NCBI GenBank assembly: GCA_963790955.1
Contig: CAWBQM010000004.1
Location: 23,643 to 87,642, forward strand
Direction of reading: 5' to 3'
Length of the DNA: 64,000 nt
DNA from: an uncultured Chloroflexia bacterium
Lineage (GTDB): Bacteria > Chloroflexota > Limnocylindria > Limnocylindrales > CSP1-4
Each line of letters opens with the position of its first letter. Position 1 is the first letter of the stretch. The notes beneath the pieces are model-generated. The model saw only the letters and a list, made by a program, of their open reading frames with translations, did not search any database and was not told the origin of the DNA. Positions 4,501 through 24,203 of this stretch are shown here, piece after piece. The position numbers were made by a program, and so were the translations under genes.

Positions 4501-5186
4501 ATCTCCTGCCAGCCGACCAGGCATTGCTCGACCATGACCTGGCCGATGGGGCTCGCACGCAGCCCGCTCCGGACACGCTCGCGGTACGCCGCCTCGGTGC
4601 CGACGATGCCGCCACCCGTGCCGCCCAGCGTGAACGCCGGCCGGACGATGGCCGGCAGCCCGATGTCGTCCAACGCGCGCTGGGTCGAGGCGTCGCGCTC
4701 GGCCGGCGTCGTGCCGCCGACGATCGCGCTCGGTGCGTAGGGCTGGCCGATCCGGTCGAGCAGGTCCCGGAAGCGCTCCCGGTCCTCGGCCATCTCGATC
4801 GCCTCGAGCGGCGTGCCGAGCAGACGCACGTCATGGCGCTCGAGCACGCCGGCGCGGGACAGAGCGACGGCCAGGTTGAGCGCCGTCTGGCCGCCGAGCC
4901 CGGCCAGCAACCCGTCGGGTCGCTCGCGGGCGATCACCGCCTCCACGGCCTCGACCGTGAGCGGCTCGAGGTAGACCGCGTCGGCGACGTCCGGGTCGGT
5001 CATGATCGTGGCCGGGTTCGAGTTGACGAGGATCGTCCGGATGCCCTCCGCCCGCAGCGCGCGACAGGCCTGCGTGCCGGCGTAGTCGAACTCGGCCGCC
5101 TGGCCGATCACGACCGGGCCCGAGCCGAGGATCAGGACCGAGCCCGGTCGCTCGGCGCGGGCCGCAGTCCCTCGCTCGACCGTCAC
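1532..5186 (-). CDS. carB: carbamoyl-phosphate synthase large subunit (apparent single-base frameshift near 4240)
   Basis: Two consecutive minus-strand ORFs in different frames cover CarB. The 3555..5222 ORF is the N-terminal half ([23 protein letters not shown] ... IEVNPRV). The 1532..4375 ORF is the remainder ([16 protein letters not shown] ... second [10 protein letters not shown] ... MGS-like C-terminus). The join lies in cgcgttCagccgc around position 4240. The start is probably the GTG near 5186. Confidence 0.85.
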
Positions 5187-5196
5187 CGTCCCGCCG

Positions 5197-6372
5197 TCAC
5201 GCCTGCCCCGTGGCGGGGACATGCCGCATCGCCGCGATGAACCGGTCGAACACGGCCAGCGCGTCGAGCGGTCCCGGCGCGCCCTCGGGGTGGTACTGCA
5301 CCGTCTCGATCGGCAGCGTCCGGTGGCGCAGGCCCTCGACCGACCGGTCGTTCAGGTTGAGCTGGCTCACGTAGAAGCCGCTCTCGGCGGGCACGGATTC
5401 GCCCACGACCTGGATCTCGTGGTTCTGGGCCGTGACCTGGACGCGGCCCGTGTCGAGATCACGTACGGGATGATTGGCGCCGTGGTGCCCGAACCGCAGG
5501 CGAGCCGTGTCCGCGCCCGCGGCGCGGGCCACGATCTGGTGCCCGAGGCAGATGCCGAGCAGCGGCCGGCCATCCGCGACGACCTGGCTCGCGAGCGCCA
5601 CGGGACCCGCCAGGCGCGCCGGATCGCCCGGTCCCGGTGACAGCACGACGCCGTCGACGTCGGCCGCGAGGACCTCGCTCGCCGAGGCGGTATGGGGCAG
5701 GACGCGGACCCGGGCGCCGCGTCGGCGCAGCGAGCGGATGATGTTGGCCTTGAGGCCGTAGTCGACGATCGCGACGAGTGGGCCGTCCTCATCCGCCGAG
5801 CCGACCTCGAACGGTTGGCCTGGCGACACCCGCGCGACGAAGTCCTGATCCTCCCAGCGAGGAACCTCGCGCGCGCGATCGACGGCGTCCTCGGCGCTCG
5901 TCGCGCCGGGTTCGGTGATGACCGCGCGCATGCAGCCGTGCGTGCGCATGTGTCGCGCGAGCGCCCTCGTGTCGACGCCGGCGATGGCCGGGATGCCATT
6001 GCCGCGCAGGAGGGTCGCGAGCTGCCGGGCGTCATCGAGCACCGCCGCCGTCGCGTAGGCCACGACCAGGCCGTGCAGCCACGGCCGCCCTGACTGGTCC
6101 TCGTCGAGCAACCGGCCGTAGTTGCCGATCAGGGGATACGTCATCACGACGACCTGACCGGCATACGACGGGTCCGTGCACACCTCCTGGTAGCCGGTCT
6201 GGGAGGTGTTGACGACCAGGTCGCCGCCGCCCGCCACGGGGGCGCCGAAGGCGATGCCCTCGAACAGCGTGCCGTCCTCGAGGGCGAGCACCGCCGGCCC
6301 GAGCGCCCCGATCCGGGCATCGACGATCGCGTCGTCGCGGGGCGCGGGCGGGCGTCGGCCGAGAGCCATCGT
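5197..6372 (-). CDS. carA: carbamoyl-phosphate synthase small subunit (glutamine amidotransferase)
   Basis: CarA N-terminal domain ([11 protein letters not shown] ... [14 protein letters not shown]) followed by a class-I GATase domain (LGICLGHQ). It is immediately upstream of carB on the same strand. The start is uncertain (6372 or 6417). Confidence 0.85.
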
Positions 6373-9028: not shown

Positions 9029-9661
9029 CTATTCGCGTCCGGCCGGGCGGCTGCCGGGCGCCTCGCCGATCGGGGCCGCCTGGTCGTTCGTCAGCTGCTC
9101 GGCGCGCAGGCCGGGCGCAACCTTGGGGGCCGGCAACGCGACCGTGTCACCGGCGATCTGCTCGGCACGCAGGCCGGGCGCGACCCTGGGCGCCGGCAGG
9201 ACCACGGTGTCGCCCGCGATCTGCTCGGCACGCAGGCCCGGCGCGACCCTCGGCGCCGCCAGCGGTGCCGTGACCGGTGCCGTCGTCGACGTCGTCGATG
9301 TGCCGACCCATGGCTCGGCCACGATGCCGACCGCGCCGATGGCGAGCACGCCGGCGAGGACGCCGGTCGCGATCAGTCGCTGCTCGACCTTGCGCGCGTC
9401 GATGGAGCGTGGGAAGTGCAGCGCGTACGCGTGCGCCTCGGTGTCGTCGCCCAGATCGAGCTCGACGATCAGTGCATCGGCCGACGCGGCGTGGCCGCTC
9501 GTGTCCGCCTCGGCGGTCGCGCGGATCCTGACCGACCGACCGGCGGCGGTCGCCTCGGCGATCTGGCGCAACCGCCCGGCATCCTGTGGGTCGAGGACCT
9601 CGACCTTCGCTCGTGTCCCGTCGTCGAACAGGATGTCGACGGTCGAATCTACCTGCATCAT
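9029..9661 (-). CDS. hypothetical single-pass membrane protein with three 24-aa tandem repeats
   Basis: There is an N-terminal soluble domain, one TM helix (LIATGVLAGVLAIGAVGIVA), and then the unit AAPRVAPGLRAEQIAGDTVVLPAP repeated three times (72-bp DNA repeats, about 9090..9260). The plus-strand alternative is an R-rich, junk-like ORF. Confidence 0.5.
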   Translation of the reverse strand: MMQVDSTVDILFDDGTRAKVEVLDPQDAGRLRQIAEATAAGRSVRIRATAEADTSGHAASADALIVELDLGDDTEAHAYALHFPRSIDARKVEQRLIATGVLAGVLAIGAVGIVAEPWVGTSTTSTTAPVTAPLAAPRVAPGLRAEQIAGDTVVLPAPRVAPGLRAEQIAGDTVALPAPKVAPGLRAEQLTNDQAAPIGEAPGSRPAGRE

Positions 9662-9788: not shown

Positions 9789-10106
9789 TCAGGAGGCCAT
9801 GCTCGGGATCGGATCGCCGATCGCGGCATCGACGCTCCGGGCGATCGTGGCCGTGAGCGCGGTATACCGATAGCGGGTGACCGACGATCCGGTGCCCACC
9901 GTGAGCAGGCGATCGTGCGAGTCGTGAGCCGAACGATTGGCTGACGCCCGCGCCGGAGGCCGGTCGGACCCGGACCAATCGGCCGGCGCGTCCCACTCGA
10001 CACGCTGACCGGGTCGGGTCGTGAGCCGTCCGTCGGCATTGCTGCCATAGGCGGCGCCGGAGCTGTCGCCGAGCGGCCGGTTGGCGTGGTCGTACGTGGT
10101 CGTCAC
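9789..10106 (-). pseudogene. orphan RHS/YD-repeat fragment
   Basis: VTTTYDHANRPLGDSSGAAYGSNADGRLTT ... resembles the YD-repeat region of the upstream rhs gene (TYDRADRITAAG ... AYDQANRITS). The fragment begins abruptly at the 70%-to-55% GC boundary (~10110) and has no core or CT. Confidence 0.45.
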
Positions 10107-10137
10107 GCCCGAGTTTCGCAGGGCACCGGCTATCGAC

Positions 10138-10422
10138 TCACCTCGAAAGCATGCGGAGGAGCGTGGCCCAAATCAACGCGAGGAGGAAGCCCAACATCAA
10201 GATCGGCACCCCTACAAAGAACGGTCCGATGATGGTATCCGGAACGACGCTCGACAACACATCGTCTCCGTTCATAAGGGCGAAAACGGGGCCGAAGGCA
10301 ACTGCACCCAGCCACGTCAGTACGGGCTGTCGCTTGCGACGCAGCTCACCGAATCGAAGAGACGCGAGCCGAGCCGGCGCGCGCCGCGCCTTGTCACCAC
10401 AAATGAAGTAGACGAGAGGCAT
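10138..10422 (-). CDS. small hydrophobic membrane protein (immunity-protein candidate)
   Basis: An approximately 94-aa protein with two predicted TM helices (MPLVYFICGDK ... VGVPILMLGFLLALIWATLLR) in the low-GC cassette. It overlaps the upstream gene by about 28 nt. Confidence 0.4.
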   Translation of the reverse strand: MPLVYFICGDKARRAPARLASLRFGELRRKRQPVLTWLGAVAFGPVFALMNGDDVLSSVVPDTIIGPFFVGVPILMLGFLLALIWATLLRMLSR

Positions 10423-11017
10423 GGTCTCGGTATTTGGCCCGCATGTCTTCGCGGCGATCAAAGAGGGCCCTCCCCTCGGACGCAACTGAGTCATTATCGG
10501 GCCGTTCGCCCGCGAGTATCCGATCAATGATGCCGCGATAGAGAGTCGCATAGTCCTTGACAAGTGCGGCCCATTCATCGTCGGGAGCGATCATGGATTC
10601 AATTCTCTCAATGATCGGAGGCGCCTTGGCAGCTACCGTTCGCTGCCAAGCCTCATAGGCTACGAGCGTCCTTGTTGCCGGATAGGTTGCCAGCAGCCGA
10701 TCCAACTGTTGGATCTGCCGATAGAATGCGCGATCAAACTCCCACTCGCCACTGTGCAAGCCGATCCGGATGCGAGTGCCGATGGAAGCTGGCAACCCTA
10801 CTACGTCGAGAAGCAGTACCGAAGCGGCGACCCCGAGGACGATATCCATGGCAGCGAAACGAACCTGGACAGTCGGCCAATGGACTGACACATCGATGAC
10901 GAAGCCCAACAGGAACACGCCAGCAATGACTGCCAGGACCCTCGACGCGCGTCTTCTAGCATCCCACGCTGCCGAAATGGCCGCGACAATGTAGAAAACA
11001 TCAGCAGGCACTGTCAT
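10394..11017 (-). CDS. membrane protein of unknown function (immunity-protein candidate)
   Basis: A 207-aa protein with three N-terminal TM helices followed by a soluble domain. It lies in the low-GC cassette, same strand and downstream of the rhs CT. Confidence 0.5.
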   Translation of the reverse strand: MTVPADVFYIVAAISAAWDARRRASRVLAVIAGVFLLGFVIDVSVHWPTVQVRFAAMDIVLGVAASVLLLDVVGLPASIGTRIRIGLHSGEWEFDRAFYRQIQQLDRLLATYPATRTLVAYEAWQRTVAAKAPPIIERIESMIAPDDEWAALVKDYATLYRGIIDRILAGERPDNDSVASEGRALFDRREDMRAKYRDHASRLLHLW

Positions 11018-11153
11018 CTGGGTACGGGTCGCAGTTGCGGCCGAAGCACTTGTGATTTTGATACACCCATCTGGGCGAGGTACTCTCGGGCACGTCGGAG
11101 CGCTTCATCGACCTCCGGCTTGGCTGGTTCCCCTAGATCGTCTCACCGGTGGG

Positions 11154-11450
11154 TCAGCGGTTTGGCCACCTCCCGAGCGCGGCCGACAACCCTCCAAGTC
11201 CAATCGCCAGGGTAGGTAACAGGACAACGGCTATCACCGGGATCGGCAGCCCGCGATCGAAGGCAACCGAAACGATGAACAAGGACGAAAAGAGTCCTGT
11301 GACGCCGAGCCCGAGCGCAACGAGCCGCATGAAGCCATGCGTGATCGGCATCCTCCTGGCGGCACGGACAGCGACCACCAGGAGCGCGCCAATCCAGATA
11401 CCCATCACGACCACAAGACCGACGAGGAACAACGCACTAGCTTGGATCAT
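11154..11450 (-). CDS. small polytopic membrane protein (immunity-protein candidate)
   Basis: A 98-aa protein with three predicted TM helices, in the low-GC cassette. Confidence 0.5.
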   Translation of the reverse strand: MIQASALFLVGLVVVMGIWIGALLVVAVRAARRMPITHGFMRLVALGLGVTGLFSSLFIVSVAFDRGLPIPVIAVVLLPTLAIGLGGLSAALGRWPNR

Positions 11451-11648
11451 CGCAGGACTTCCATTAGCCGCTGCGGCGTAGAACCATCAGAACCGAGGCG
11501 CTCTCGCCACTGATCGCGATCAACGCAAGGCTGAGTCCGCTAGACAGCGCGGCGGAGTCAGATCCCCAAACCCTCCGCCCTGCGTCACGGGGTCGACGGC
11601 GTCCGCGCCGAGGATACGCCGACGCTCGGGGCTTGACACTTTCATTCG

Positions 11649-11996
11649 TCAGGTTACGGCCAAGGCAACGATACCTCGCGCCAGCAAGAGCAGACCGCCG
11701 ATGATGCTAACGATGCCTAACCACCGGATGGGAACGCCCGCTACGATGCCCCACTCTGGAACGGTTAGCAACATCCCGGCGAGGAGAATGATCGTCGGGA
11801 CAGCGACCTGCTGGGCGGCTTGACCGGCGACCGTGATAAGGAGAGCAGAAGTTACGATCGCGAGACCACCTAAGGCAAGCGGTAGCTGATGTCCCCAGAT
11901 CAATCTGCCACGACGCCACAATATGAACCACCGCGCAACGATGGCCGTTGGCACAAAGAGGGCGACGAAGGCTGCGGCTGTTTCTGCACTTGTCAT
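11649..11996 (-). CDS. small polytopic membrane protein (first gene after the rhs toxin; immunity candidate)
   Basis: A 115-aa protein with four predicted TM helices. Its ATG overlaps the rhs TGA as ATGA (11993-11996), which suggests translational coupling. Confidence 0.55.
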   Translation of the reverse strand: MTSAETAAAFVALFVPTAIVARWFILWRRGRLIWGHQLPLALGGLAIVTSALLITVAGQAAQQVAVPTIILLAGMLLTVPEWGIVAGVPIRWLGIVSIIGGLLLLARGIVALAVT

Positions 11997-14371
11997 GGCA
12001 CTAGCACGGGTGGCGGGGCGGGGATTGGTGCGATCGGACCGATTGGCGGCACGGGAGGCAACGGGAAGTCAGGCCCGGACGCGTTACTCGCATCGGGCGC
12101 GTTACGGCGGTCCCCAGTGCAATAGAGAATCGACTGCTGCACGTATCCATAATTGTTGATAACCGCGTACCCATTGTAGGCGGCGTTCAGCAACAGCAGG
12201 ACATCGAGACCTGGGACAAGCTCTCCACCAAAGAGGAACGCGCCGAGGGATGCCGCCGCTGATCCAACTGCAACGAACTCAAGCACCACCTGGCCTGCAG
12301 CGTTTAGGCACTTGACCGCGATGGCTGGTGGGCTATCGCCCCCCAGCGCCTGTGACTTCTGTCCTGATGGGTCGATCACTCCCGTTGGATCGTTGACAGC
12401 GTAGGAGTAGCGGTTCAGCGTCTGACAGGCTCGTGGATTACCCGAGAACGTGTCTCTGCTCATGAAGCGTCCCAGGCTCGGATCGTAGTAGCGGGCCCGC
12501 AGGTACACGAGGCCGCTGGCGTCCGTGGGTTCGCCGGTGAAGCCGTACGGCTGGTCGGATGTACCGGTGGTGCTCGTCGGGGTGCCCCAGGCGTCGGTGC
12601 GGTAGGTGGCGGTGACCGCGCCTGAGGCGTCGGTGATCGATCTGGTCGAGCCCAGGCGATCGGTGTGGTAGACCTCGAGGGCTGCGCCCTGTACGGCGTA
12701 GGCGAGGCCCAGGCCGTACACGTACTTGCGCGTGCCGTCGTCGAGCGTGACCGGCAGGCTGCGGTTGGGGTCGGACACGTACGTGATCGTGGGATCGGTG
12801 CCGACCTGGCGGCTGACCCGGAGCCCGTCGCCGGCGTACGCGTATGTTTCGGTGGTGCCGGCCACGGTCGCGCTCGTGATGCGGTTGGCCTGGTCGTAGG
12901 CGAACGTGTCGGCGCCCTTGGCGGTCGTGTTGCCGGCCGCGTCGACGGTGAGGCTCATGGCGCCGGCGGCGGTGATCCGGTCGGCTCGGTCGTACGTGGA
13001 GCTCTGCGTGGTCCCATCGGTCACGCTCACTCGGTTGCCGACCGGATCGTAGCCATAGGTCGGTGCGCCGTCGGGCCCGAGGACCGAGGTCAGCCGGTAC
13101 AGGTGATCGTAGGCGTACGTCGAGGCGTCGAGCCCGGGCCCGCGCACGAAGATGTCGCTCGTGTTGTTCGTGTCGCCCGCGACGAGGTTCGACGCGACCG
13201 ACTGGAAGGCGACCGTGCCCGCGTCGGCGCTCAGCCACGGATCCTGGCTCGTGCCGTTGCCGGGCGTGCCGTCGGTCGCGATCGAGAAGCGGGTGTTGAT
13301 GCCCGACGCCAGATCGCGCACGAACACGTCCGAGCGGTTGTTCGTGTCGCCGGCGATGAGGTTCGTGGCATTGGAGGCGAAGCCGAGCTTCGAGCCGTCG
13401 GAGCTGAGCGATGGGTCGGAGCTGTCCTTGTTGCCCTGGACACCGGCGTCGCTGACCGAGGCCCGGATCGTGACCCCGGTCGCGAGCGTGTGCACGAAGA
13501 CGTCGGTCTTGGCGTTGGTGTCGCCGGTCACGAGGTTCGTGGCCGCCGACTCGAAGGCGAGCGTGCTGCCATCACCGCTGATCGCGCCATCGTCGCTGGC
13601 GCCGTTGGCCTGGCCGCCCGAGCTCGAGACCGAGACCCGCGTCGTCGTGCCCGCCACGCGGTCGTACACGAACATGTCGGTCACGCCGTTCGTGTCGCCG
13701 GCCACCAGGTTGGTCGCATCCGATTCGTACAGCACGTAGCGACCGTCGTCGCTGATCAGGGGCCGGTCGCTCTTGGCGTTCGACTGGCTGCCGTCGGAGG
13801 CGACCGAGACCCGCGTCGTCGTATTCGTCTGACGATCGCGCAGGAAGATGTCGGCCACACCGTTGGTGTCACCGCTGATCAGGTTCGTGGCGTCGGACTT
13901 GAACGCCACCCAGCGCCCGTCGGCCGAGAGGACCGGGTAGTACGACGCGCCGTTGGCCTGGGCGCCCGAGCTACTGACCGAGACCCGCTCCACCGCTCCG
14001 GTCACGAGATCCTTGACGAACGTGTCCCAGGCCGTGCCGTTGGTGTCGTTGGCGACGAGGTTACTGGCCTGGCTGCGGAACGCAGCGTAGCGGCCGTCGG
14101 CACTGATCGAGCCGTCGTCGGCACGCGCGTTGCCGATCGTCCCGTCGGACGCCGAGTCGGCGGCCACGATGCCACCGGTCAGGCGATCCTTGACGAACAC
14201 GTCGTCGCCGTTGTTCGTGTCGTTGGTGACGAGGTTGGACGCGGACGAGCGGAACGTGACGTATCGGCCGTCCGAGCTGATGAACGCCTTGTCCGATACG
14301 CCGTTGCCCTGGCCATGGGTCGAGGACTCGGACACGCGCTCGGTGCCGACCGTGGCGCCACCGGCGCCCAC
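11993..14371 (-). CDS. RHS-repeat polymorphic toxin with N-terminal PD40/TolB-like beta-propeller repeats and variable C-terminal toxin domain
   Basis: There are about nine repeats of the form DGRYVAF.S.ASNLV.GDTNG..D.FV.D (PD40-like), then YD repeats (YAYDHLYRLTSV, YGYDPVGNRVSV, FAYDQANRITS). The RHS core ends at RARYYDPSLGRFMSRDTFSG ... NDPTGVIDPSGQ. A hydrophobic CT of about 138 aa follows, lying in 57% GC DNA. The start is a GTG. The reading frame stays open upstream as far as the permease stop at 14519. Confidence 0.85.
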   Translation of the reverse strand: MGAGGATVGTERVSESSTHGQGNGVSDKAFISSDGRYVTFRSSASNLVTNDTNNGDDVFVKDRLTGGIVAADSASDGTIGNARADDGSISADGRYAAFRSQASNLVANDTNGTAWDTFVKDLVTGAVERVSVSSSGAQANGASYYPVLSADGRWVAFKSDATNLISGDTNGVADIFLRDRQTNTTTRVSVASDGSQSNAKSDRPLISDDGRYVLYESDATNLVAGDTNGVTDMFVYDRVAGTTTRVSVSSSGGQANGASDDGAISGDGSTLAFESAATNLVTGDTNAKTDVFVHTLATGVTIRASVSDAGVQGNKDSSDPSLSSDGSKLGFASNATNLIAGDTNNRSDVFVRDLASGINTRFSIATDGTPGNGTSQDPWLSADAGTVAFQSVASNLVAGDTNNTSDIFVRGPGLDASTYAYDHLYRLTSVLGPDGAPTYGYDPVGNRVSVTDGTTQSSTYDRADRITAAGAMSLTVDAAGNTTAKGADTFAYDQANRITSATVAGTTETYAYAGDGLRVSRQVGTDPTITYVSDPNRSLPVTLDDGTRKYVYGLGLAYAVQGAALEVYHTDRLGSTRSITDASGAVTATYRTDAWGTPTSTTGTSDQPYGFTGEPTDASGLVYLRARYYDPSLGRFMSRDTFSGNPRACQTLNRYSYAVNDPTGVIDPSGQKSQALGGDSPPAIAVKCLNAAGQVVLEFVAVGSAAASLGAFLFGGELVPGLDVLLLLNAAYNGYAVINNYGYVQQSILYCTGDRRNAPDASNASGPDFPLPPVPPIGPIAPIPAPPPVLVP

Positions 14372-14518
14372 CGCGGACAGGACGTTGCCGACCGGGTCGA
14401 GCGTATACGCGTGCTGCTCGAAGACGGTCGAGCCGAGCTTGTGGACGATCGAGGTCAGCCGGGCGTCATTGTCGTAGCCGTACGTGGCCGTCGTCGTTTC
14501 TAGGCCCAGCCACGTTGG

Positions 14519-15490
14519 TTAGGTTGGCCGTCGGCGGTTGACGACGATGGCGGCGCCGACGAGACCGACCAAACCAACCGACCCGAATAGCGCGATGTCG
14601 TACAAGATCCACTGGAGGGCTTCGGACTGCGGAATCCCCAACGCAACGGGCTCGTAGCCGCGGTCCCCCAGCCACTGGTCGCTGCTTTCTTGAGGAGCCA
14701 CGCCGGATGGCACAAGCGCGAGTGCAGCCTCCTCGTTGAGAATGCTTCCATCGGGTGCGCGCCAACCCTGGTTAGTTTGCACTGCAGCGACCAGGTTCGA
14801 GTTCTGGTCGCCGATCACAGTCGCCGGTCGAGTCTGGATCCACGCTTGATGGGCCAGACTGGCTCCATAGTCAAGCGCTAGCACGAGGGCGACCCCGACG
14901 ATGAACGCTGGCAACGTGCGGCCCATGACCGCGCCAAGCAGCAATCCCACACAGAATCCCGCCAACGCTCGTCCGAGGACGATCGGACCATGGAGGGTCA
15001 TGTCATTGACGGCGGTATTGAGCCACGGCTGGCGCGTCGCCTCGAGGCGATCGGCCGCGATCGCCGCGAAGGCCACGGCAAGACCCAGCAGCACGAGCAC
15101 CGGCACCACCTGTCGCGCGAGCCATCGCAGGCGCGAAGGGGCGAGGAACCAGGCGGTCTGCGCGGTCCGCGCTTCGAGCTCGCGGCCCACGAGCGGCACG
15201 CCGCCGAGGAGGCCGACCGCGAACGGCAGGACCGCCATCGCGGCGAAGACCTTGCCGGCCTCGGACTCGTTGATCTGCGCGAACGCGTTGACCGGACCGT
15301 AGCAGTCGCCCGCACTCTGAGGGCCGGCGCTCAGCCACTGCTGGAAGCAGCCGGCCGGGACATGGACCGCGAGCAGCCGCTCGTTGACGAGCAGCGCGGC
15401 CGCCCCCAGGACGAGCGCCGCGAGCGCGGCGGCGCCGACCTCGAAGCGGTGCAGCTTGAGCGTGAGTCGGACCGATCGGAGCCGCATCAC
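14519..15490 (-). CDS. ABC-2 type transporter permease (module 1)
   Basis: A 323-aa protein with six TM helices and a large extracytoplasmic loop. It is a paralog of permeases at 23236..24192, 18926..19873 and 19879..20955, and it overlaps the ATPase stop. Confidence 0.8.
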   Translation of the reverse strand: MMRLRSVRLTLKLHRFEVGAAALAALVLGAAALLVNERLLAVHVPAGCFQQWLSAGPQSAGDCYGPVNAFAQINESEAGKVFAAMAVLPFAVGLLGGVPLVGRELEARTAQTAWFLAPSRLRWLARQVVPVLVLLGLAVAFAAIAADRLEATRQPWLNTAVNDMTLHGPIVLGRALAGFCVGLLLGAVMGRTLPAFIVGVALVLALDYGASLAHQAWIQTRPATVIGDQNSNLVAAVQTNQGWRAPDGSILNEEAALALVPSGVAPQESSDQWLGDRGYEPVALGIPQSEALQWILYDIALFGSVGLVGLVGAAIVVNRRRPT

Positions 15491-16341
15491 GCGGCCTCCT
15501 CCCCCGACCGGCCCGGGCGGCCGCGAGGTACCCGAGCACGACCTCCTCGAGGGTTGCCGGCCGGCCGATCTCGGCGCCGTGCACGAGGGCGAGCGGCTCC
15601 CCGCTCGGGACCGGCGAAGCTGCCGATCGCCGCCCGCCCGTCGAGCGCGGCCGCGTCGACGGTGCGATGCTCGGCGCGGGCCGACGCGACGTCACGGTCG
15701 AGCAGTAGCCGCCCGCCCGAGAGCACGACGAGCCGATCGCACGCCTGCTCGACGTCGGTCACGATGTGCGACGAGAGCAAGACCGTCGAGCCGTTGGCCC
15801 GGACGTCCTCGACGAGCACGGTCAGGAAGTCGCGCCGGGCGAGCGGGTCGAGGTTCGCGAGGGGCTCGTCGAGGAGCAGCACCGGCGCCCGCGTCCCGAG
15901 CGCAAGCGCGAGCGAGACCTGGGCCTGCTCGCCTCCGGACAGATCGCCGATCGGCCGGTTGCCGGAGAGGCCGACGTCGTGGATGCGCGCGAGCGCGTGG
16001 TCGCGGTCGAACGTCGGGCGGCTCACCCGCGCGAGATCGAGATGGTCGTCGATCTTGAGCCCGCGATACAGCGCGACGCCCTGGGGCACGTAGCCGACCG
16101 AGCCCACCGCCCGGGCTCGGTCGCGCTGGGGATCGACGCCGGCGACGAGGACGCGACCCTCGTCCGGACGCTCGAAGCCCAAACATGCCCGAATCAGTGT
16201 CGACTTGCCGGCGCCGTTGGGGCCGACGAGGGCGGTGATCGAGCCGCCTGGCACGGTCAGCGACACGTCCCGGCATGCCCACGGCCGGGAGCGTCGGTAG
16301 CGGCGTCCGAAGTGCTCCGTGACGAGCGGTCGTTCTTCCAC
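15487..16341 (-). CDS. ABC transporter ATP-binding protein (module 1; locally frame-altered C-terminus)
   Basis: Walker A (GPNGAGKST), ABC signature (LSGGEQ), Walker B (LLLDEP). About 90% identical to module 2 except for a roughly 30-aa C-terminal stretch read in another frame (an extra G at ~15610, compensated near ~15510). Confidence 0.8.
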   Translation of the reverse strand: MEERPLVTEHFGRRYRRSRPWACRDVSLTVPGGSITALVGPNGAGKSTLIRACLGFERPDEGRVLVAGVDPQRDRARAVGSVGYVPQGVALYRGLKIDDHLDLARVSRPTFDRDHALARIHDVGLSGNRPIGDLSGGEQAQVSLALALGTRAPVLLLDEPLANLDPLARRDFLTVLVEDVRANGSTVLLSSHIVTDVEQACDRLVVLSGGRLLLDRDVASARAEHRTVDAAALDGRAAIGSFAGPERGAARPRARRRDRPAGNPRGGRARVPRGRPGRSGEEAA

Positions 16342-16544
16342 GAGCCGAGTTCCTAATGCGCCAACGGTCGAGTGCGGGCCGGGCTCGATCGAGAGACCAT
16401 CCTGGCCGGGCGGCCGCTGCCGGCTAGAAGCATTCTGGGTCTGCGAATCCCTGCTATCAGCTCCAGCGCGTGAGGGAGTGAGGTCCTCCGGGCATGCCGC
16501 ATGAGTGCGTGGGGCGTGGCTGCCGTAAGACTACCGCAGCAGGG

Positions 16545-16931
16545 TCACGTACTTGGACCCTGAGGACACGTTGATGTGTATGTCCATTTGAAGGAACTGA
16601 CTGTGTCGTTGTACGAACCGTAGTTGCTGGAGTATGTGTTTCCAGAGGCGCTGTATGGGCTGGGAAGCTGGTTCGAATATCCAGCGTCACGATATTGATG
16701 GATCCAGTAATGACAGTTCGAGTTATACACATGGAAGCTGCTGAAGCAATCGTTGAGATCGTATGGCCAATCCAGCCCCGATCCGGAGCAATGTGGGAAT
16801 GCCACCTGGCTCAAGTCGCTCTCACCATACGGGTAGCAATAGGTAACCGAGTTGCCGCCGTATCCTGTATTCTCCCAGAAGGTCACATATGCCCCGCTGC
16901 AAGAAGCTGCAGCGGAAGGCACAAGAACGAG
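16545..16931 (-). pseudogene. small Cys-rich secreted betagamma-crystallin-like protein, copy 1, 3' (mature-domain) part, separated from its signal peptide by IS256
   Basis: The mature domain is CSGAYVTFWENTGYGGNSVTYCYPYG ... CHYWIHQYRDAGYSNQ ... STCPQGPST (six Cys, Greek-key-like W-x4-Y-x-G motif), in 50% GC DNA. Its native signal peptide lies on the other side of the IS (18372..18458). Confidence 0.6.
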
Positions 16932-18371
16932 TGGCGTCCCCCCGAGTGGTGGGATTTGAGCGAGGCTCCTGACCTGCGCTGACATCGCGCAGCGAGGGGG
17001 CCACCGGTGTGATTCTCAGCGTGTCTCTTAGCCGGAGCACGTGAGGTTCACCGATGGCCCTGTCACAGTCTGCCCTGTCCGAGCTGCTCGACGCGATCCG
17101 CGCGGGCGGCAGCGAGGACGTCCTGCGCGAGGCGATGACACTCGTCCTCCAGGAGCTGATCGAGCTCGAGGCGGCCCAGGCGATCGGCGCCGGCCGGTAC
17201 GAGCGGACCGACGAGCGCTCGACCCACCGCAACGGCAGCCGCAGTCGGCTCCTTTCGACCAAGGCCGGCGACGTCGAGCTGCGCATCCCCAAGCTCCGCC
17301 AGGGCTCGTTCTTCCCGGCGCTCCTGGAGCCGCGGCGGCGGATCGACCGAGCCCTGTGGGCGGTCGTCATGGAGGCCTACGTCCACGGCGTCAGCACGCG
17401 CAAGGTCGACGACCTGGTGACCGCCCTCGGGATCGACGCCGGGATCAGCAAGAGCGAGGTATCCCGGATCTGTGGCGAGCTCGACACGGTCGTGGCGACG
17501 TTCCGTGACCGACCGCTCGGTCACACCCGCTTCCCGTACGTCTTCCTCGACGCGACGTACGTCAAGGCCCACGACGGCGCGTCGGTGGTCAGCAAGGCGA
17601 TCGTCGTCGCGACCGGGGTGACCGCGAAGGGCGATCGTGAGGTCCTCGGGCTCGCGGTCGGCGACAGCGAGGATGGCGCCTTCTGGACCGCGTTCCTGCG
17701 CTCGCTCCGGGCGCGCGGCCTGGCCGGCGTGCGGCTTGTCATCAGCGACGCCCACGAAGGCCTCAAGGCGGCGATCGGGGCCGTCCTCCTGGGTGCCGCG
17801 TGGCAGAGGTGCCGGGTCCACTTCCTGCGCAACGTGCTGACCCGGATCCCCAAGGGCAGCGCCGAGATGGTGCTGGCTGCGATCCGAACCATCTTCGCCC
17901 AGCCCGACGCGGCATCGGTCAGCGAGCAGCTTGACGAGATCGCGGAGCGACTCGAGCCTCGTTTCCCGGTCGTCGCCGCGATGCTCGCCGAGGCCAAGGA
18001 GGACGTCACGGCGTTCACCGCGTTCCCGGTCGGCCACTGGCGCAAGGTCTGGTCGACGAACCCGTTGGAGCGGGTCAACCGCGAGATCAAGCGGCGGACT
18101 GACGTGGTCGGCATCTTTCCGAACGAAGCGGCGATCCTGCGGCTGGCTGGTGCGGTCCTGCTCGAGGTCCACGACGAGTGGGCGATCGCCGACCGGCGCT
18201 ATCTGGCCGAAGGCTCGATGGCGAGGCTTGACCCGCCCGCCGAAGATGGTCAGACCAAGGAGGTGGAGCGAGCGAAGACCGTCCTGCTGGCGTCCTGAGC
18301 GACGCCTTCGACACCGTCGCTGAGCATCACGACGGACCGCTCATTTCCCACCACTCCAGCGGCCACGGCCC
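16932..18371 (+). mobile_element. IS256-family insertion sequence (about 1440 bp) with 8-bp target-site duplication AAGAACGA
   Basis: Imperfect terminal inverted repeats (left gtggcgtccccccGAGTGGTGGGATTTGAGCG; right reverse-complement gggccgtggccgctgGAGTGGTGGGAAATGAGCG). AAGAACGA is duplicated at 16924..16931 and 18372..18379, whereas the intact paralog at 25741 has a single copy. Confidence 0.8.
17054..18298 (+). CDS. IS256-family (Mutator-like) transposase
   Basis: A 414-aa protein with the Transposase_mut signature (FPYVFLDATYVKAH ... VISDAHEGLKAAI ... WQRCRVHFLRN). Confidence 0.9.
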   Translation: MALSQSALSELLDAIRAGGSEDVLREAMTLVLQELIELEAAQAIGAGRYERTDERSTHRNGSRSRLLSTKAGDVELRIPKLRQGSFFPALLEPRRRIDRALWAVVMEAYVHGVSTRKVDDLVTALGIDAGISKSEVSRICGELDTVVATFRDRPLGHTRFPYVFLDATYVKAHDGASVVSKAIVVATGVTAKGDREVLGLAVGDSEDGAFWTAFLRSLRARGLAGVRLVISDAHEGLKAAIGAVLLGAAWQRCRVHFLRNVLTRIPKGSAEMVLAAIRTIFAQPDAASVSEQLDEIAERLEPRFPVVAAMLAEAKEDVTAFTAFPVGHWRKVWSTNPLERVNREIKRRTDVVGIFPNEAAILRLAGAVLLEVHDEWAIADRRYLAEGSMARLDPPAEDGQTKEVERAKTVLLAS

Positions 18372-18458
18372 AAGAACGAATAGCCATGCCGAAAGAAACA
18401 ACGAGCCGACAACCACAACATGCGGACGCCGTCGGCGTCGCTGTGCGAGATTGGACAT
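18372..18458 (-). pseudogene. 5' fragment (signal peptide) of the betagamma-crystallin-like gene, copy 1
   Basis: It encodes MSNLAQRRRRRPHVVVVGSLFLSAWLFVL. This is contiguous in frame with LVPSAAASCSG ... at 16931 if the IS is removed. Confidence 0.5.
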
Positions 18459-18925
18459 CCTCGAGTCCTCCTCCTGTGAAGGTCCACGGTCGTCGCACGC
18501 GAACTCGAGTATACTACGCGTGTCAAGAGTCACTGAACCTGCCAGTACAGTTGCTAACGACCTGTGGCTAGCTCCCCGCCCCCGGAGCTCTCGTCATGTT
18601 GCCACGGGAATCGCCCTTCCGAGATCCACGGACTCAGTTTGTGGCCTCTATACCCTTCTGCCTGACCCATTCATCGACGAGGCAAATGTCAAGGGCTCAG
18701 GTCGCGGACGCACGTGGACTTGAGATGGGAAACTGGTTCGATCGCAGTGTCGACGGCAGCCACTTCAGATCGGCCAGATGATCCCGACAGGCAGACGGAT
18801 CGTCCACCCCTCTCTGCCAGCCGCGATGGGATCAGCGCTCACCGAAGTCGCCACGGCGCGAGGTCAGGATCGGCAAAGCGGCCCTCTCTGGATGTCCGTC
18901 GCACGTCCTTCACGCCAAGTACACC

Positions 18926-19878: not shown

Positions 19879-20955
19879 TCATACGCCAGCCCAGCCAGAC
19901 GCTGCTCCGACGCCAGCCGCCGCGGTTTGGTTCGGCGGCCGTGGCGCCGTAATCGAGCGCCGCGCGTCGAGCTCGAGTCCGATCCCGGGAGCGGGTCGGC
20001 GGCGGCGGACCGCGACGAGCGCGAGGAGGCCGGCCAGGAGCGCGACGCCGCCTGTCGCCGCCGCCTCGCGCGCCTCGACCTCCGGATAGTGGACGCCGCT
20101 GATGCCCAGGAACACCCGGTGCCAGCCGACATGGAACAGCCACAGCGCGTAGCCCGGCGAATCGATGACCTGCGCCTCGGGTGGTCGCAGCGGCGCCGAC
20201 TCGTCGAACGTGAGCTGGGTCCCGTCGGGCAGCTCGAAGCCCTCGCCGAATGCGAGCGGCACGGCCTGGGTCTCCTGGTCGACCTCGGCGCGGTCGACCG
20301 CCTCTCGGGGCAGCCAGTACGGGCGCACATTCGCCGCGAGCGCGAGCCCGACCAGACACAGCCCGCCCGCGAGGAGCAGCGCCGGCAGGGTTCGGCCCAG
20401 CACGACCCCGGCCGCGAGCCCCAGGCCGAACGCGACCAGGCCGCGCACGACGACGAGGATGCCCCGCGAGCCGACGTCGTAGAAGGACTGCGACGGATCG
20501 AACTGGGGATAGATCGCGGCCTCGAGCCGATCGCCCGCGAGCGCCGGGCCGACGAGCAGGAGCACGACCAAGAGGGCCGCCGGCCAGACCCGCCAGGCCA
20601 GCCAGCGCACGCGCGACGCGGTCAGCGACCAGGCCAGTGGTGCGCTCCGGCGCTCGAGCTCGCGGGCCACGAGCGCCGGGCCATAGAGCAGGCCGATGAC
20701 GATCGGGATGAGCGACGCCGCGAACAGGAGCGGCGACCCGAACGACTGCGAGAGGTTGTAGAAGTCGACCACCTCACACGTGCGCAGGCCCGGGCACTGA
20801 CCGGCCCGGATCGCGTCGAGCTGCGCGGCGACCGCGAGCATGCCCAGGGTCAGCGCCGCCGAGAGGCCGATGCCGGCGGCGATCTCGAAGCGCGCGGTCC
20901 GCCAGAACAGCTGCACGCTCCGGGTCATGGCACCGAGAGCCTCAGGCGCCGTCGG
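19879..20955 (-). CDS. ABC-2 type transporter permease (module 3, first permease)
   Basis: Start at MTRSVQLFWRTARFEIAAG. It has six TM helices and a large external loop, and overlaps the ATPase stop by about 14 nt. Confidence 0.7.
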   Translation of the reverse strand, partial: PTAPEALGAMTRSVQLFWRTARFEIAAGIGLSAALTLGMLAVAAQLDAIRAGQCPGLRTCEVVDFYNLSQSFGSPLLFAASLIPIVIGLLYGPALVARELERRSAPLAWSLTASRVRWLAWRVWPAALLVVLLLVGPALAGDRLEAAIYPQFDPSQSFYDVGSRGILVVVRGLVAFGLGLAAGVVLGRTLPALLLAGGLCLVGLALAANVRPYWLPREAVDRAEVDQETQAVPLAFGEGFELPDGTQLTFDESAPLRPPEAQVIDSPGYALWLFHVGWHRVFLGISGVHYPEVEAREAAATGGVALLAGLLALVAVRRRRPAPGIGLELDARRSITAPRPPNQTAAAGVGAASGWAGV

Positions 20956-21847
20956 GGGCCGCGGCCGCCGCCATCGCCGGTGCGGCGAGGTAGCCCAGCA
21001 CGAGCTCCTCGAACGAGGGCTCGCGCCCGATGTCCGTGGCGCGCACGAGGGCGAGCTCGACGTGATCGGCCGGGAAGCGCCCGACCGGGACGAGGTCGGC
21101 GGGCAGGTCGCCGGCCGGCACGACGCGGTGCTCGGCTCGGGCGGTGGCGATCGGGGCATCGAGTCGCACCCGGCCGGCGACGAGCACGACCAGGTCCTCA
21201 CAGGCGTCCTCGATGTCGCGCACGATGTGGGAGCTGATGACGACCGTCGCAGCCGATGCGGCGGCCTCACGCCGGAGCACGTCGAGGAACTCCCGTCGCG
21301 CGAGTGGATCGAGGCTCGCGAGCGGCTCGTCGAGGAGCAGGATGCGCGCCTCCGCGGCGAGCACGAGCGCGAGTCCGAGCTGGGCGCGCTGGCCACCCGA
21401 CAGCTCGTCGGCCCGGCTGCGGCGGGGCAGGCCCAGCTCGTGGACCCGGGCCAGGGCGGCGTCGCGGTCCAATCCCCGGCGCAGGTACGCCGCCAGATCG
21501 ACGTGCTCCTCGACGCTCAGCTCGTCATACAGCGAGGGTTGCTGGGGGATGTACCCGAGCGAGCGGATCGCCTCGCCCCGGCGGCGCCACGGATCGACCC
21601 CGGCCGCCGACACCTGGCCGCGGGTCGCGTGCTCGAAGCCCAGCCAGGTGCGCAGGAGTGTCGACTTGCCGGCGCCGTTGGGTCCGACCAGGGCCACGAT
21701 CCGACCCGGTGCGATCGCGAGGCTGACGTCCTCGAGCGCCCAGTGCCCGCGCCGGTAGCGCTTCCACAGGCCGCTCGCGGCCAGGGCGGGCTGTGCGGCC
21801 AGAGCAGTCGACGTGGGCGCCATCACCGAAGACGGTACCAGCCGCAA
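20942..21847 (-). CDS. ABC transporter ATP-binding protein (module 3)
   Basis: Walker A GPNGAGKST, signature LSGGQRAQ, Walker B LLLDEP. The C-terminal tail FEELVLGYLAA is shared with the module 2 ATPase. Confidence 0.8.
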   Translation of the reverse strand: MRLVPSSVMAPTSTALAAQPALAASGLWKRYRRGHWALEDVSLAIAPGRIVALVGPNGAGKSTLLRTWLGFEHATRGQVSAAGVDPWRRRGEAIRSLGYIPQQPSLYDELSVEEHVDLAAYLRRGLDRDAALARVHELGLPRRSRADELSGGQRAQLGLALVLAAEARILLLDEPLASLDPLARREFLDVLRREAAASAATVVISSHIVRDIEDACEDLVVLVAGRVRLDAPIATARAEHRVVPAGDLPADLVPVGRFPADHVELALVRATDIGREPSFEELVLGYLAAPAMAAAAAPDGA

Positions 21848-22149: not shown

Positions 22150-22505
22150 CGGAAGAACTGCTGGAGACTGCGGTAGGGGTTCGCCGCGGAGGCAGGACGG
22201 AGACGCGTGAGCTGGTCGGCGATGAAGGCGTCCACGTGCTCACGGCGGATCGCCGCCACGGTCCGGGGCATGCCCTCCTCGGCCAGGAACGCGTCGAAGC
22301 GGCCCACAGCGTCGAAGTAGGCGTGGATTGTGGCCGGCGTCCGGTCGCCCGCGTGGACGTGACGACGAAGGAGGCGCCGTTCGCGGCGAGGTCGTCGACT
22401 GCGGTAGACTCGGCCGCGCCGACCTGGCTGGGCGGCGTCGGATGGTCGTTGATCGAGCGTCTGGGCATCACCCACGTCGATCGACAGTTCGAGCGCCATG
22501 GTCAA
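22137..22505 (-). pseudogene. truncated, frameshifted tyrosine-integrase N-terminal fragment (diverged copy of int at 36232..37191)
   Basis: [30 protein letters not shown] ... followed, in another frame, by [32 protein letters not shown] ... SLQQFFRWL. This is about 85-90% aa identity to int residues 1-109, then it stops. Confidence 0.7.
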
Positions 22506-22554
22506 GCCGGGGAGGCCGGCGCCAGTTAGTGCTCTAACTGAGCGTGAACCTCGT

Positions 22555-22591
22555 GGGCCCGTAGCTCAACGGTAGAGCAAGTGACTCTTAA
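22555..22591 (+). other. partial tRNA-Lys copy (5' half up to the anticodon loop); att-like junction
   Basis: It is identical to nt 1-37 of the tRNA at 37280 (GGGCCCGTAGCTCAACGGTAGAGCAAGTGACTCTTAA). The 89-nt int-proximal spacer is also conserved. Confidence 0.7.
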
Positions 22592-24192: not shown

Positions 24193-24203
24193 GCGCAGCA
24201 TCG

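Follow-up and report, generated by a model that had tools for sequence, protein, structure and literature searches.

An rhs gene followed on the same strand by genes for small membrane proteins raises the question of whether it encodes a deployable polymorphic toxin with its immunity proteins, or only the remains of one. Such an arrangement occupies part of the window, the 64-kb stretch of DNA that we analysed, in which an rhs ORF and four ORFs lying 3' of it (ORF1 to ORF4; 115, 98, 207 and 94-146 aa) are all on the minus strand. A previous sequence-only reading had reported these four ORFs and had taken the whole for a Rhs polymorphic-toxin locus, and both statements are borne out, the latter by PD40 repeats, RHS/YD repeats and a Rhs-associated core in one ORF. 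As argued below, the locus is probably a degraded Rhs toxin-immunity array of the orphan type, and its host is probably a member of the Chloroflexota; as a system it is an ordinary orphan Rhs-CT/immunity array, and its novelty is a CT/immunity family of a well-known kind.

The C-terminal domain and ORF1

The Rhs-associated core (aa 593-671; 12359..12595, minus strand) was matched by TIGR03696 at 73.4 bits (cutoff 32.5), and it has the canonical DPSGQ end that had been claimed for it, DPTGVIDPSGQ, in the context ...RARYYDPSLGRFMSRD...NDPTGVIDPSGQ. The C-terminal (CT) domain beyond DPSGQ (11996..12358, minus strand) comprises 121 aa rather than the 138 aa first given. The statement that it holds no assignable motif stood up to profile searches, which gave no PDB match and, for any member of the family, no Pfam match at E<=1. 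The family is rare, with only 4 representatives found among 1.84 billion proteins by exhaustive HMMER searching, and with further members from the fetched loci the alignment holds about 10 sequences. Conserved throughout are K-C...Q...GG...N...Q..YC...PDAS, including the Cys pair, followed by a Pro-rich tail. The AF2 prediction, of low confidence (pLDDT 55), has helices at residues 10-43 and 49-81, giving a two-helix hairpin that the conserved Cys pair brackets and the tail follows. Of the earlier description as hydrophobic and Pro-tailed, the tail stands, and the hydrophobicity is only moderate (GRAVY 0.45; 0.36-0.48 across the family).

The CT does vary between alleles, as had been supposed; P0028, P0051 and the L007 Rhs are 59-63% identical over the aligned body and carry unrelated CTs. 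The CT studied here is in frame with propeller, YD repeats and core in L085, and terminates a 1314-aa Rhs ORF in P0121. The loci that bear it are mostly fragmented or frameshifted metagenome assemblies (L002, L003, L005), and the case for its ever being deployed from an intact gene depends chiefly on L085 and P0121, which are themselves interrupted by contig ends or by a frameshift further upstream.

ORF1 (11649..11996, minus strand; four TM segments) starts within the ATGA overlap of the rhs stop codon noted in the sequence-only reading, and a homologue lies directly after the CT at six further sites, spread over five unrelated loci, mostly overlapping the CT stop codon. In L003, L005, L017 and L085 the CT is followed by an ORF of 115-120 aa with 3-4 predicted TM segments, and in L002 by a partial copy; in four of these five loci the ORF overlaps the CT stop. 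ORF1 is 45% identical to the ORF in L085 (E 4e-19) and 32% identical to that in L005 (E 1e-7). The equivalents in L003, L017 and L002 agree with it in size, position and topology, and pairwise BLASTP found no significant similarity to the one in L003. Because the ORF1-family HMM, whose listed training set comprises L003, L005, L017 and L085, was trained on both L003 and L017, it is no independent test for those two loci, and homology to their ORFs rests on position, size and topology.

Identity between the immunity candidates falls along with identity between the CTs (CT 64%, immunity 45%; CT 66%, immunity 32%; CT about 40%, no significant match), and alleles with other CTs precede other proteins: in L007 the next ORF is soluble and 180 aa long, in L017 polytopic and 296 aa long. 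ORF1 is likely the cognate immunity protein of the CT. The proposal that the downstream genes encode membrane immunity proteins is supported for ORF1, a conserved partner of the CT and a credible membrane immunity protein, and is unsupported for ORF2 and ORF4, for which no homologues were found.

We infer that the CT may be a small toxin that acts on membranes. It would form an amphipathic hairpin of helices, presumably stapled by a disulfide between the conserved Cys residues, and would insert into the cytoplasmic membrane of the target and dissipate the membrane potential; the 4-TM ORF1 product, translationally coupled to the CT, would neutralise it in the membrane of the producer. It is improbable that the 121 aa are instead a membrane anchor, a linker or a decayed tip, with ORF1 to ORF4 as chance membrane proteins of a low-GC island. 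The lack of an enzymatic motif and of any profile match, the low confidence of the model and a tail rich in Pro, as is typical for linkers, would all fit that reading, but in all characterised Rhs proteins it is the encapsulated toxin that follows the Rhs core, and the unit is conserved with invariant residues across the aligned sequences. Moreover, the ORF1 family is always next in line and co-varies with the CT, which recurs in orphan arrays alongside other CT/immunity pairs.

The low-GC cassette and ORF2 to ORF4

GC content is 0.57-0.63 over approximately 10130-12450 against 0.67-0.71 in the repeat region, and GC3, at 0.91 in the rhs body, is 0.61-0.73 in the CT and ORF1 to ORF4; L005, L007, L017 and L085 show similar drops in GC where their CT/immunity regions lie. 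The GC drop that had been read as the hallmark of a swapped cassette is therefore real, and the CT and downstream genes have a foreign-looking composition, but the figure of 57% GC given for the CT DNA belongs with the downstream ORFs (57-60%), the CT itself measuring 62%. Nor does the exchange fall exactly at DPSGQ. The GC3 change-point (0.91 to about 0.65) is at residue 629 (nt 12484), which precedes DPSGQ by some 40 codons, and identity to alleles with other CTs falls from 85-95% to 35-45% past residue 640. This joint breakpoint in composition and homology (12470..12490, minus strand), at residues ~629-640 between RARYY and DPSLGRFMSRD, lies inside the conserved core and marks the 5' edge of the imported cassette, which would have supplied the end of the core, the 121-aa CT and ORF1.

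The remaining ORFs are a mixed group. The product of ORF3 (10394..11017, minus strand; 207 aa) carries a membrane anchor at its N-terminus and a four-helix domain at its C-terminus (AF2 pLDDT 73-91 over residues 89-206), and is 35% identical to L007:12349-12981 (E 5e-38), with homologues in L005 and L009 too. In L007 and L009 the homologue lies directly 3' of a different CT, of a hydrophobic, Gly/Ala-rich 'DPSGRCV...' type, which suggests that ORF3 here is likely an orphan immunity gene for that CT type. Of the two suggestions made earlier for the row of membrane proteins, immunity paralogs or orphan immunity genes, the first is set aside since the four are not paralogous, and the second fits ORF3. 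ORF2 (11154..11450, minus strand; 98 aa, three hydrophobic segments) has a codon-position GC pattern compatible with a coding hydrophobic ORF, but its status as a gene is unsupported, with no family match and no homologue in the 85 fetched loci, including L005, the closest cassette. ORF4 (10138..10422, or to 10578 from an upstream ATG, minus strand; 94 or 146 aa, two hydrophobic segments) overlaps the end of ORF3, has no homologue in any fetched locus, L005 included, and is a doubtful gene; a 1-nt indel at 10351 between the window and the assembly L001 changes its frame.

A 5'-truncated rhs ORF at a duplication boundary

The rhs ORF (11993..14371, minus strand) runs for 792 aa from its first GTG. 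Its RHS/YD repeats were matched by PF05593 and TIGR01643, and the YD region contains seven PD40/TolB-type beta-propeller repeats (13141..14290, minus strand; PF07676, 47.9 bits), not the "about nine" first counted, each of 58 aa and recognisable as direct-repeat families with 174-nt spacing. At the propeller site, P0121 and L085 have an insert made of another kind of repeat, and L005 and L003 have none.

Full-length relatives are Sec-exported proteins of about 1900 aa that comprise, in order, a signal/TM segment, PA14, DUF6531, about 800 aa of YD shell, a beta-propeller at a fixed site, YD repeats, the Rhs core and a variable CT (in L007, PA14 scores 80.7 bits and DUF6531 53.8 bits). The window ORF matches only residues ~1034-1787 of the 1917-aa L007 Rhs, and residues 1-1033 have no match anywhere in the 64 kb. 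It is a 5'-truncated remnant, the last ~40% of such a gene, without the approximately 1030 residues that hold the signal peptide, PA14, DUF6531 and most of the YD shell, and therefore cannot, in its present form, be delivered as a toxin. Directly upstream of the GTG, translation and alignments reveal a start-less, in-frame YD-repeat coding remnant (14372..14518, minus strand), which is stop-free back to the stop codon of an ABC-2 permease gene and aligns to internal residues of P0028 and P0121 and to the L007 Rhs from residue 1034; similarity to other rhs genes starts at ~14500. That YD coding continues past the GTG in this way contradicts the view of rhs as a whole gene. The GTG itself is in frame, and some translation of the 792-aa fragment is possible.

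As an orphan array, the locus would most likely serve at present to protect, through its immunity genes, and to keep sequence in store for recombination with full-length rhs; no full-length rhs gene lies in the window. We consider it unlikely that the module instead acts as an intracellular toxin-antitoxin-like pair, with a truncated Rhs-CT made from an internal start and checked by ORF1. There is precedent in Salmonella, where RHS elements consisting of a full-length rhs and an adjacent orphan without the delivery part are reported to act as type II TA modules (PMC7043789), and the in-frame GTG and tight CT/ORF1 coupling would suit such a pair; however, no promoter-like signal and, by eye, no Shine-Dalgarno-like sequence precedes the GTG, and the conserved Cys pair suggests folding outside the cytoplasm.

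Less probable still is an intact PD40/YD Rhs toxin, translated from the GTG at 14371 and delivered, with four immunity paralogues downstream. While the ORF is uninterrupted, both core Asp positions are present and ORF1 is translationally coupled, this proposal has to contend with the upstream coding, the missing N-terminal domains of the relatives and the membership of ORF1 to ORF4 in unrelated families; furthermore, about 180 aa of YD repeats are left beside the core, far below what a closed shell needs, given that solved Rhs shells have ~1000 aa or more.

The truncation point coincides with the end of a 2.4-kb segmental duplication, at the ABC-2 permease stop (boundary 14521). Copy 1 (14519..16930, minus strand) comprises the ABC-2 permease gene (14519-15490, minus strand), an ABC ATPase gene (15487-16341, minus strand; ABC_tran Pfam match) and a low-GC upstream gene, and in the self-match 14521-16529 is 87.6% identical to 23238-25229 and 16523-16930 is 95.8% identical to 25338-25745. 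Copy 1 is interrupted by an IS256-family insertion sequence (16944..18356, plus strand; Transposase_mut E 1.6e-139) with 19-nt inverted repeats (16944-16962 and 18338-18356), whose flanks are contiguous in copy 2. The 5' part of rhs would thus have been lost at the edge of the duplicated ABC-transporter segment, beside the IS256 element. That truncation and junction are assembly artefacts, such as a chimeric join in a repeat-rich metagenome-assembled genome, is very improbable, since for all the repeats, duplications and IS elements of the region, the frameshifted carB in the same window and the 1-nt indel separating the two assemblies, the join coincides with a clean edge of the duplication and does not fall within a repeat, and the independent Logan assembly L001 shows this permease/rhs junction as well as the entire cassette, at 99.96% identity. 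L001 may stem from the same sample as the window, and the carB frameshift represents at least one probable indel error in the window assembly.

On the downstream side of the array lies a decayed YD-repeat remnant of another rhs 3' fragment (9790..10106, minus strand), of native GC (~0.70). RHS_repeat scored 16.8 bits against the uncorrected frame, a score that rose to 35.2 bits once two frameshifts had been corrected by hand, and the best local match was to L007 Rhs 1533-1606 (score 80, against 46 +/- 6 for shuffles). This remnant and the start-less upstream frame had both been overlooked.

Relation to known Rhs systems

Orphan rhs-CT/rhsI modules keep variable lengths of upstream rhs, often without initiation signals (PMC3150448). 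As in the enterobacterial examples from Dickeya, Yersinia and Salmonella (PMC3150448, PMC7043789), we find a 3' fragment with upstream rhs coding and no delivery part, in which the core leads into a variable CT and a small immunity gene comes next, and an array with extra fragments, stand-alone immunity genes and foreign CT/immunity composition. Classic orphan modules, however, sit downstream of a full-length rhs, whereas this fragment abuts the duplicated ABC-transporter segment, and at ~750 aa, including the whole propeller, it is unusually long. The host also differs, being a probable monoderm member of the Chloroflexota with Sec-type Rhs relatives and not a T6SS organism.

Bacillus subtilis WapA is a Sec-exported Rhs/YD toxin of a monoderm bacterium. 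The full-length relatives such as L007 resemble the WapA type, to which the WapA of Streptococcus suis belongs (PMC12704120), in signal peptide, YD repeats, polymorphic CT, adjacent immunity gene and absence of a T6SS; they add PA14, DUF6531 and the inserted beta-propeller, and the window copy lacks the whole N-terminal part.

The pore-forming or depolarising action that we propose for the CT is modelled on Tse5 (RhsP1) of Pseudomonas aeruginosa, whose pore-forming Rhs CT is neutralised by the membrane protein Tsi5 (PMC9637101). Both are non-enzymatic Rhs C-terminal domains, helical and partly hydrophobic, next to a gene for a small integral membrane immunity protein (PMC9637101, PMC10684867). 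The two share no sequence similarity: in the PDB sequence library the CT profile did not match Tse5 (8cp6), which is matched by the Rhs core only. The present CT also differs in being 121 aa long and in having the conserved Cys pair and a tail rich in Pro; its candidate immunity protein has 4 TM segments where Tsi5 has 2, and Tse5 is delivered by the T6SS where the relatives here are Sec-exported. RHS-repeat proteins can also end in the pore-forming domain Tox-WTIP (Zhang et al. 2012, PMC3482391), reported from proteobacteria, which resembles the CT in being a non-catalytic toxin domain of membrane type with two helices. Its defining motifs, RxxR and Wx[ST]IP, are absent from the alignment of the CT family, and Pfam matches none of the family members at E<=1.

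The cocoons of TcB/TcC ABC toxins and the teneurins (4igl, 6h6e, 6fb3) also combine a YD shell and a beta-propeller with a Rhs core before an encapsulated C-terminal region, with sequence similarity detectable in the core region only. In contrast to these, the propeller here lies only ~260 aa before the core end and is a swappable insert, of PD40 type, of another repeat type or absent.

Domain content and truncation of the rhs gene

The rhs open reading frame (ORF) lies at positions 11993-14371 and encodes 792 aa from a GTG start, and an ORF survey of the window placed both it and the four small ORFs downstream (ORF1-ORF4) on the minus strand throughout. It contains RHS/YD repeats (PF05593, 27.2 bits, cutoff 22; TIGR01643, 20.8 bits, cutoff 15.8) and, at aa 593-671, the Rhs-associated core (TIGR03696, 73.4 bits, cutoff 32.5). 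These matches bear out the RHS polymorphic-toxin locus recognized in the sequence-only reading, which had also correctly described the four small same-strand ORFs and the ATGA overlap at the rhs stop. The core includes RARYYDPSLGRF and ends ...RARYYDPSLGRFMSRD...NDPTGVIDPSGQ; two core Asp positions are both kept (SRD..., IDPSG), and the core closes with the DPxG motif, followed in the window by Q, where L is usual in relatives. The PD40 repeats (PF07676, 47.9 bits, cutoff 20.9) form seven units, each of 58 aa (174-nt period), where about nine had been claimed; seven is enough for a predicted beta-propeller.

The 5' part of the rhs gene is missing, and the ORF is a remnant. Upstream of the GTG, the frame (14372-14518, minus strand) is stop-free YD-repeat coding sequence (ETTTATYGYDNDARLTSIVHKLGSTVFEQHAYTLDPVGNV...) that runs to the stop codon of an ABC-2 permease gene (14519-15490, minus strand), and its translation aligns with internal regions of the closest relatives, the homologous proteins P0028 and P0121. 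This retained frame has no start codon, the first in-frame start being the GTG at 14371, before which inspection by eye revealed no SD-like sequence; a promoter and terminator scan showed no promoter-like site there and gave no signal beyond shuffle expectation. Such signals are poorly defined in Chloroflexota.

The nearest rhs bodies in a genome scan were 66-71% identical and came from Chloroflexota MAGs, including those of Ca. Limnocylindria and Chloroflexia. Among them, the full-length relative at locus L007 is an intact gene of 1917 aa, in which a signal/TM segment is followed by PA14 (80.7 bits), DUF6531 (53.8 bits), a YD-repeat stretch of about 800 aa, the PD40 propeller, further YD repeats, the core and an unrelated C-terminal domain (CT). 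The window ORF covers only residues 1034-1787 of this protein, and residues 1-1033 have no counterpart anywhere in the 64-kb window, where neither signal peptide, PA14 nor DUF6531 was found; a complete YD shell and an N-terminal trafficking or secretion domain are thus lacking. A tblastn search with the full-length homologue found no second rhs sequence within the 64-kb window.

The gene is cut off where a segmental duplication ends; the coding part of the duplication (14521-16529 and 23238-25229) is 87.6% identical between copies and the low-GC upstream part (16523-16930 and 25338-25745) 95.8% identical. An IS256-family element (16944-18356, plus strand), identified by its transposase match and inverted repeats, splits copy 1. 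The junction and the whole cassette are reproduced in an independent Logan assembly of the region (L001) at 99.96% identity. Downstream of ORF4 lies a decayed YD remnant (~9790-10106, minus strand), recognized by its RHS repeat score (16.8 bits in the raw frame, 35.2 bits after two frameshifts were corrected by hand) and by a match to L007. Its best match, residues 1533-1606, falls in the post-propeller YD segment of the L007 protein; the remnant is therefore another rhs 3' fragment and cannot be the missing N-terminal part. Taken with the truncation at the duplication edge and the IS256 element, this remnant describes a rearranged rhs 'graveyard' that holds no working toxin gene. A seemingly intact toxin gene is in fact a truncated remnant at a site of duplication- and IS-driven rearrangement, and the main value of the analysis is corrective. 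The upstream ABC transporter was ruled out as part of the rhs system, being a separate duplicated unit that is never an rhs neighbour in the fetched loci.

The imported cassette: CT and ORF1

The drop in GC that had been noted for the CT was confirmed, GC being 0.57-0.63 across ~12450-10130 against 0.67-0.71 before it, and GC at third codon positions (GC3) being 0.91 in the rhs body, 0.66 in the CT and 0.64, 0.73, 0.61 and 0.72 in ORF1 to ORF4, respectively. The swap point had been placed at DPSGQ, but a maximum-likelihood change-point in GC3 falls within the core at residue 629 (nt ~12484), between RARYY and DPSLGRF, and alleles that carry other CTs (P0028, P0051, L007) are 85-95% identical at residues 621-640, 35-45% at residues 641-680 and 5-20% in the CT. 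Therefore the imported piece starts about 40 codons upstream of DPSGQ and carries its own core end. Within this core end the signature CQTLNRY accompanies the CT in the homologues P0121 and P0123, and as QTLNRY in locus L017, and is absent from L085. A comparable GC drop occurs at the CT/immunity regions of L005, L007, L017 and L085. Comparison of alleles upheld the swapping of CTs among similar bodies: P0028, P0051 and L007 have bodies that are 59-63% identical over the aligned region, while their CTs and downstream genes are unrelated.

The CT itself spans 121 residues after DPSGQ, not 138 as first counted. An exhaustive HMMER search with these residues against 1.84 billion representative proteins returned only four matches, and a first metagenome scan with the four-sequence CT alignment found no relatives. 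A profile search and metagenome scan added P0132, P0133 (equivalent to L085) and P0134, a second scan, for the close subfamily, yielding only L085; inspection of the loci brought in L017 and, in L003, a second copy. Two members place the window-type CT on longer Rhs proteins: P0121 is a 1314-aa Rhs ORF, and in L085 the CT is in frame with propeller, YD repeats and core. In the alignment, K-C close to the start is invariant, as is a second Cys (Y-C in most members) about 63 residues on; Q, GG and N positions are conserved as well, and the sequences have a PDAS-like motif and a tail rich in Pro, for which P-x-P is a common ending. An AF2 model from a seven-sequence alignment has long helices at 10-43 and 49-81 with low confidence (pLDDT 55), and with the same low confidence the two Cys are predicted to sit at paired ends of this hairpin. 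The low GC and Pro-rich tail of the original description stand; the hydrophobic character is only moderate across the family (GRAVY 0.36-0.48).

No Pfam family matched members of the CT family, and scans of the CT and ORF1-ORF4 against Pfam, NCBIfam and PADLOC found no family at or near threshold. In a search of the PDB sequence library the CT profile matched nothing below E = 1, Tse5 included; the colicin Ib pore domain, at E = 2.7, is a chance-level match and was discounted as a relative. As an Rhs polymorphic toxin whose CT and immunity genes form an orphan array, the system is of a known kind; its CT family and candidate immunity family are previously undescribed.

ORF1 (11649-11996, minus strand, 115 aa) overlaps the rhs stop by ATGA, and an ORF of 115-120 aa with three to four predicted TM segments directly follows the CT in every locus that has post-CT sequence. 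The pair occurs twice in L003, and with overlapping genes in L005, L017 and L085; in L002 the second ORF also overlaps the CT and is cut by the contig end, leaving its first 44 aa. Identity of the following ORF to ORF1 tracks that of the CT: 45% (E = 4e-19) in L085 with a CT ~64% identical to that of the window, 32% (E = 1e-7) in L005 with a CT at ~66%, and not significant pairwise in L003 and L017 with CTs at ~40%, where the ORFs match ORF1 in length and topology. A family HMM trained on five full-length sequences recovered those five and the untrained L002 fragment (E = 0.009), and no further member among the fetched loci or in the window. Alleles whose CT differs have different neighbours: a soluble ORF of 180 aa follows in L007 and, in L017, a polytopic one of 296 aa. 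This linkage is the pattern expected of a cognate immunity gene, and from it we infer an immunity function for ORF1. The toxin-locus idea at the centre of the sequence-only reading thus survives as an Rhs locus with ORF1 as the only supported partner of the CT, and fails in that the gene is a remnant and the swap lies inside the core.

Downstream genes and the propeller insert

A conserved downstream unit had been sought in other genomes, and was found for CT/ORF1 only (L002, L003, L005, L017 and L085). The expectation of small membrane immunity partners accordingly gains support for ORF1, whose pairing with the CT is kept across loci, and is unsupported for ORF2-ORF4 as partners of the window CT; nor do these form the row of immunity paralogs that had been suggested. 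ORF3 (10394-11017, minus strand, 207 aa) belongs to a separate family, also represented in L007 (35% identity, E = 5e-38), L009 and L005. The homologues in L007 and L009 each lie immediately after a CT of another kind, short, hydrophobic and rich in Gly/Ala, which starts DPSGRCV... and in L007 belongs to an orphan core fragment; the homologue in L005 comes after a YD remnant. Given that two of its homologues follow the DPSGRCV... CT, ORF3 is best read as a putative orphan immunity gene belonging to a second family of CTs and not as an ORF1 paralogue. In its AF2 model the C-terminal ~120 aa form a four-helix bundle (pLDDT 73-91), for which Foldseek found only generic helical bundles in the PDB (E > 1).

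ORF2 (11154-11450, minus strand, 98 aa) and ORF4 (10138-10422, minus strand, 94 aa, or 146 aa from an upstream ATG) have a coding-like GC pattern by codon position and no homologue among the 85 loci, the closest cassette, L005, included. The window and L001 differ by a 1-nt indel at 10351, which shifts the ORF4 frame. The possibility that ORF2 is a decayed 'RCV'-type CT was ruled out, there being no sequence similarity and no core remnant upstream.

The PD40 propeller occupies a fixed site between ...LDPVGNV and YxYDxLYRLT.... At this site P0121 and L085 carry a different repeat insert (SBBP-like, 19.3 bits, below threshold) and L005 and L003 carry none. Because the insert varies in this way at a fixed site, the propeller looks like a second swappable module of the Rhs lineage, which hints at modular target recognition.

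Possible roles, known systems and neighbouring features

The window locus resembles the orphan rhs-CT/rhsI module (Poole et al. 2011, PMC3150448) in having a 3' rhs fragment, core end, CT and candidate immunity gene with no 5' delivery region, and in that its CT is also fused to longer rhs genes elsewhere (P0121, L085). It differs in that such modules lie downstream of a full-length rhs gene, of which there is none within the 64-kb window. As in Enterobacteria, the rhs loci of these Chloroflexota genomes decay into orphan arrays and gather immunity genes. The toxin part of the remnant cannot be exported, and the present value of the locus likely lies in immunity and as a recombination reservoir. 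By analogy, the orphan module might instead act inside the cell in a toxin-antitoxin (TA)-like manner, for which Salmonella RHS elements that include an orphan rhs gene are a reported precedent (PMC7043789); we consider this improbable.

For full-length relatives, analogy with characterized systems suggests that the protein would be exported by Sec, that its YD shell would enclose the CT, and that cleavage would occur at the core. The freed small amphipathic hairpin would then enter the cytoplasmic membrane of a neighbour and dissipate the membrane potential, an action that the four-TM ORF1 protein would block in the producer's own membrane.

To our knowledge, interbacterial antagonism in Chloroflexota is essentially unstudied. 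It is possible, if doubtful, that with CT/ORF1 monoderm Chloroflexota have a new Rhs-delivered class of membrane toxin together with its immunity protein, the propeller site being a second polymorphic site. The toxin would be a disulfide-stapled amphipathic helical hairpin of ~65 residues with a Pro-rich tail, hitting the target membrane from outside, and the immunity protein a four-TM protein that blocks it; the swappable beta-propeller cassette (PD40, other repeat or none) could determine which targets are recognized, whatever the toxin tip. If confirmed, this would add one more family to the few non-enzymatic, membrane-targeting Rhs tips, Tse5-CT and Tox-WTIP. The CT has no sequence homology to Tse5-CT (Tse5 residues ~1169-1317), Tse5 being matched via the Rhs core alone. 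Tox-WTIP has a membrane helix 1 with RxxR and a helix 2 with Wx[ST]IP (Zhang et al., PMC3482391); two helices are predicted for the window CT too, but both motifs are missing from the eight-sequence alignment and there is no Pfam match.

At L017:8600-11550, L085:1450-2390, L003:3450-7150 and L007:11900-13900, rhs 3' fragments lie in arrays, and every fragment has a CT and a downstream gene of its own. In these related Chloroflexota arrays several further CTs are hydrophobic too, rich in Gly/Ala and succeeded by membrane proteins; judged from these sequences, membrane-type tips may be common in the Chloroflexota Rhs lineage. Frameshifts split rhs in L002 (2781-4523 and 4520-8464) and both rhs and polA in L003, probably through metagenome assembly errors, so that the split state of these genes is no guide to their intactness. 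In the window, carB (1532-5222, minus strand) is frameshifted near nt ~4230, its N-terminal ORF passing out of frame after CPSase_L_D2; an assembly indel is more likely than a pseudogene, which calls for caution with frameshift calls elsewhere in the window.

The duplication (14521-16930 and 23238-25745; also 18367-18535 and 25733-25907) comprises an ABC ATPase, the ABC-2 permease and an upstream low-GC gene, and there is a third ABC copy, more diverged, at ~20500-21700. Each of the two duplicated ABC operons is immediately preceded by an ORF of low GC (0.52-0.55) that is conserved (~16400-16900 and ~25290-25790, minus strand) and encodes a small Cys-rich, apparently secreted protein (...SCSGASVTFWENTGYGGNSVTYCYPYGESDL...NDTVSSFKWTYTSTCPQGPST); in copy 1 its 5' end is cut by IS256. 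The protein has no Pfam match, presumably resembles beta/gamma-crystallin or killer-toxin-like proteins, and could be an antimicrobial with the ABC transporter as self-protection pump. The IS256/Mutator-family element (16944-18356) looks intact, with a transposase at 17054-18298 (E = 1.6e-139) and 19-nt terminal inverted repeats. Downstream of permease copy 2, part of a tyrosine-recombinase N-terminal SAM-like domain (~22400-22800, minus strand; Phage_int_SAM_4, 25.7 bits, just below cutoff) is a further sign of mobile-element activity. A native-GC ORF at 9029-9661 (minus strand, 210 aa), with no family match, has a single TM segment and three tandem copies of a 63-nt (21-aa) repeat (PRVAPGLRAEQIAGDTVVLPA). 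The window also holds an ALIL pseudoknot (29584-29694, minus strand, 66 bits), the frameshift element of IS3-family transposases, and a tRNA-Lys(CTT) at 37280-37354 (plus strand).
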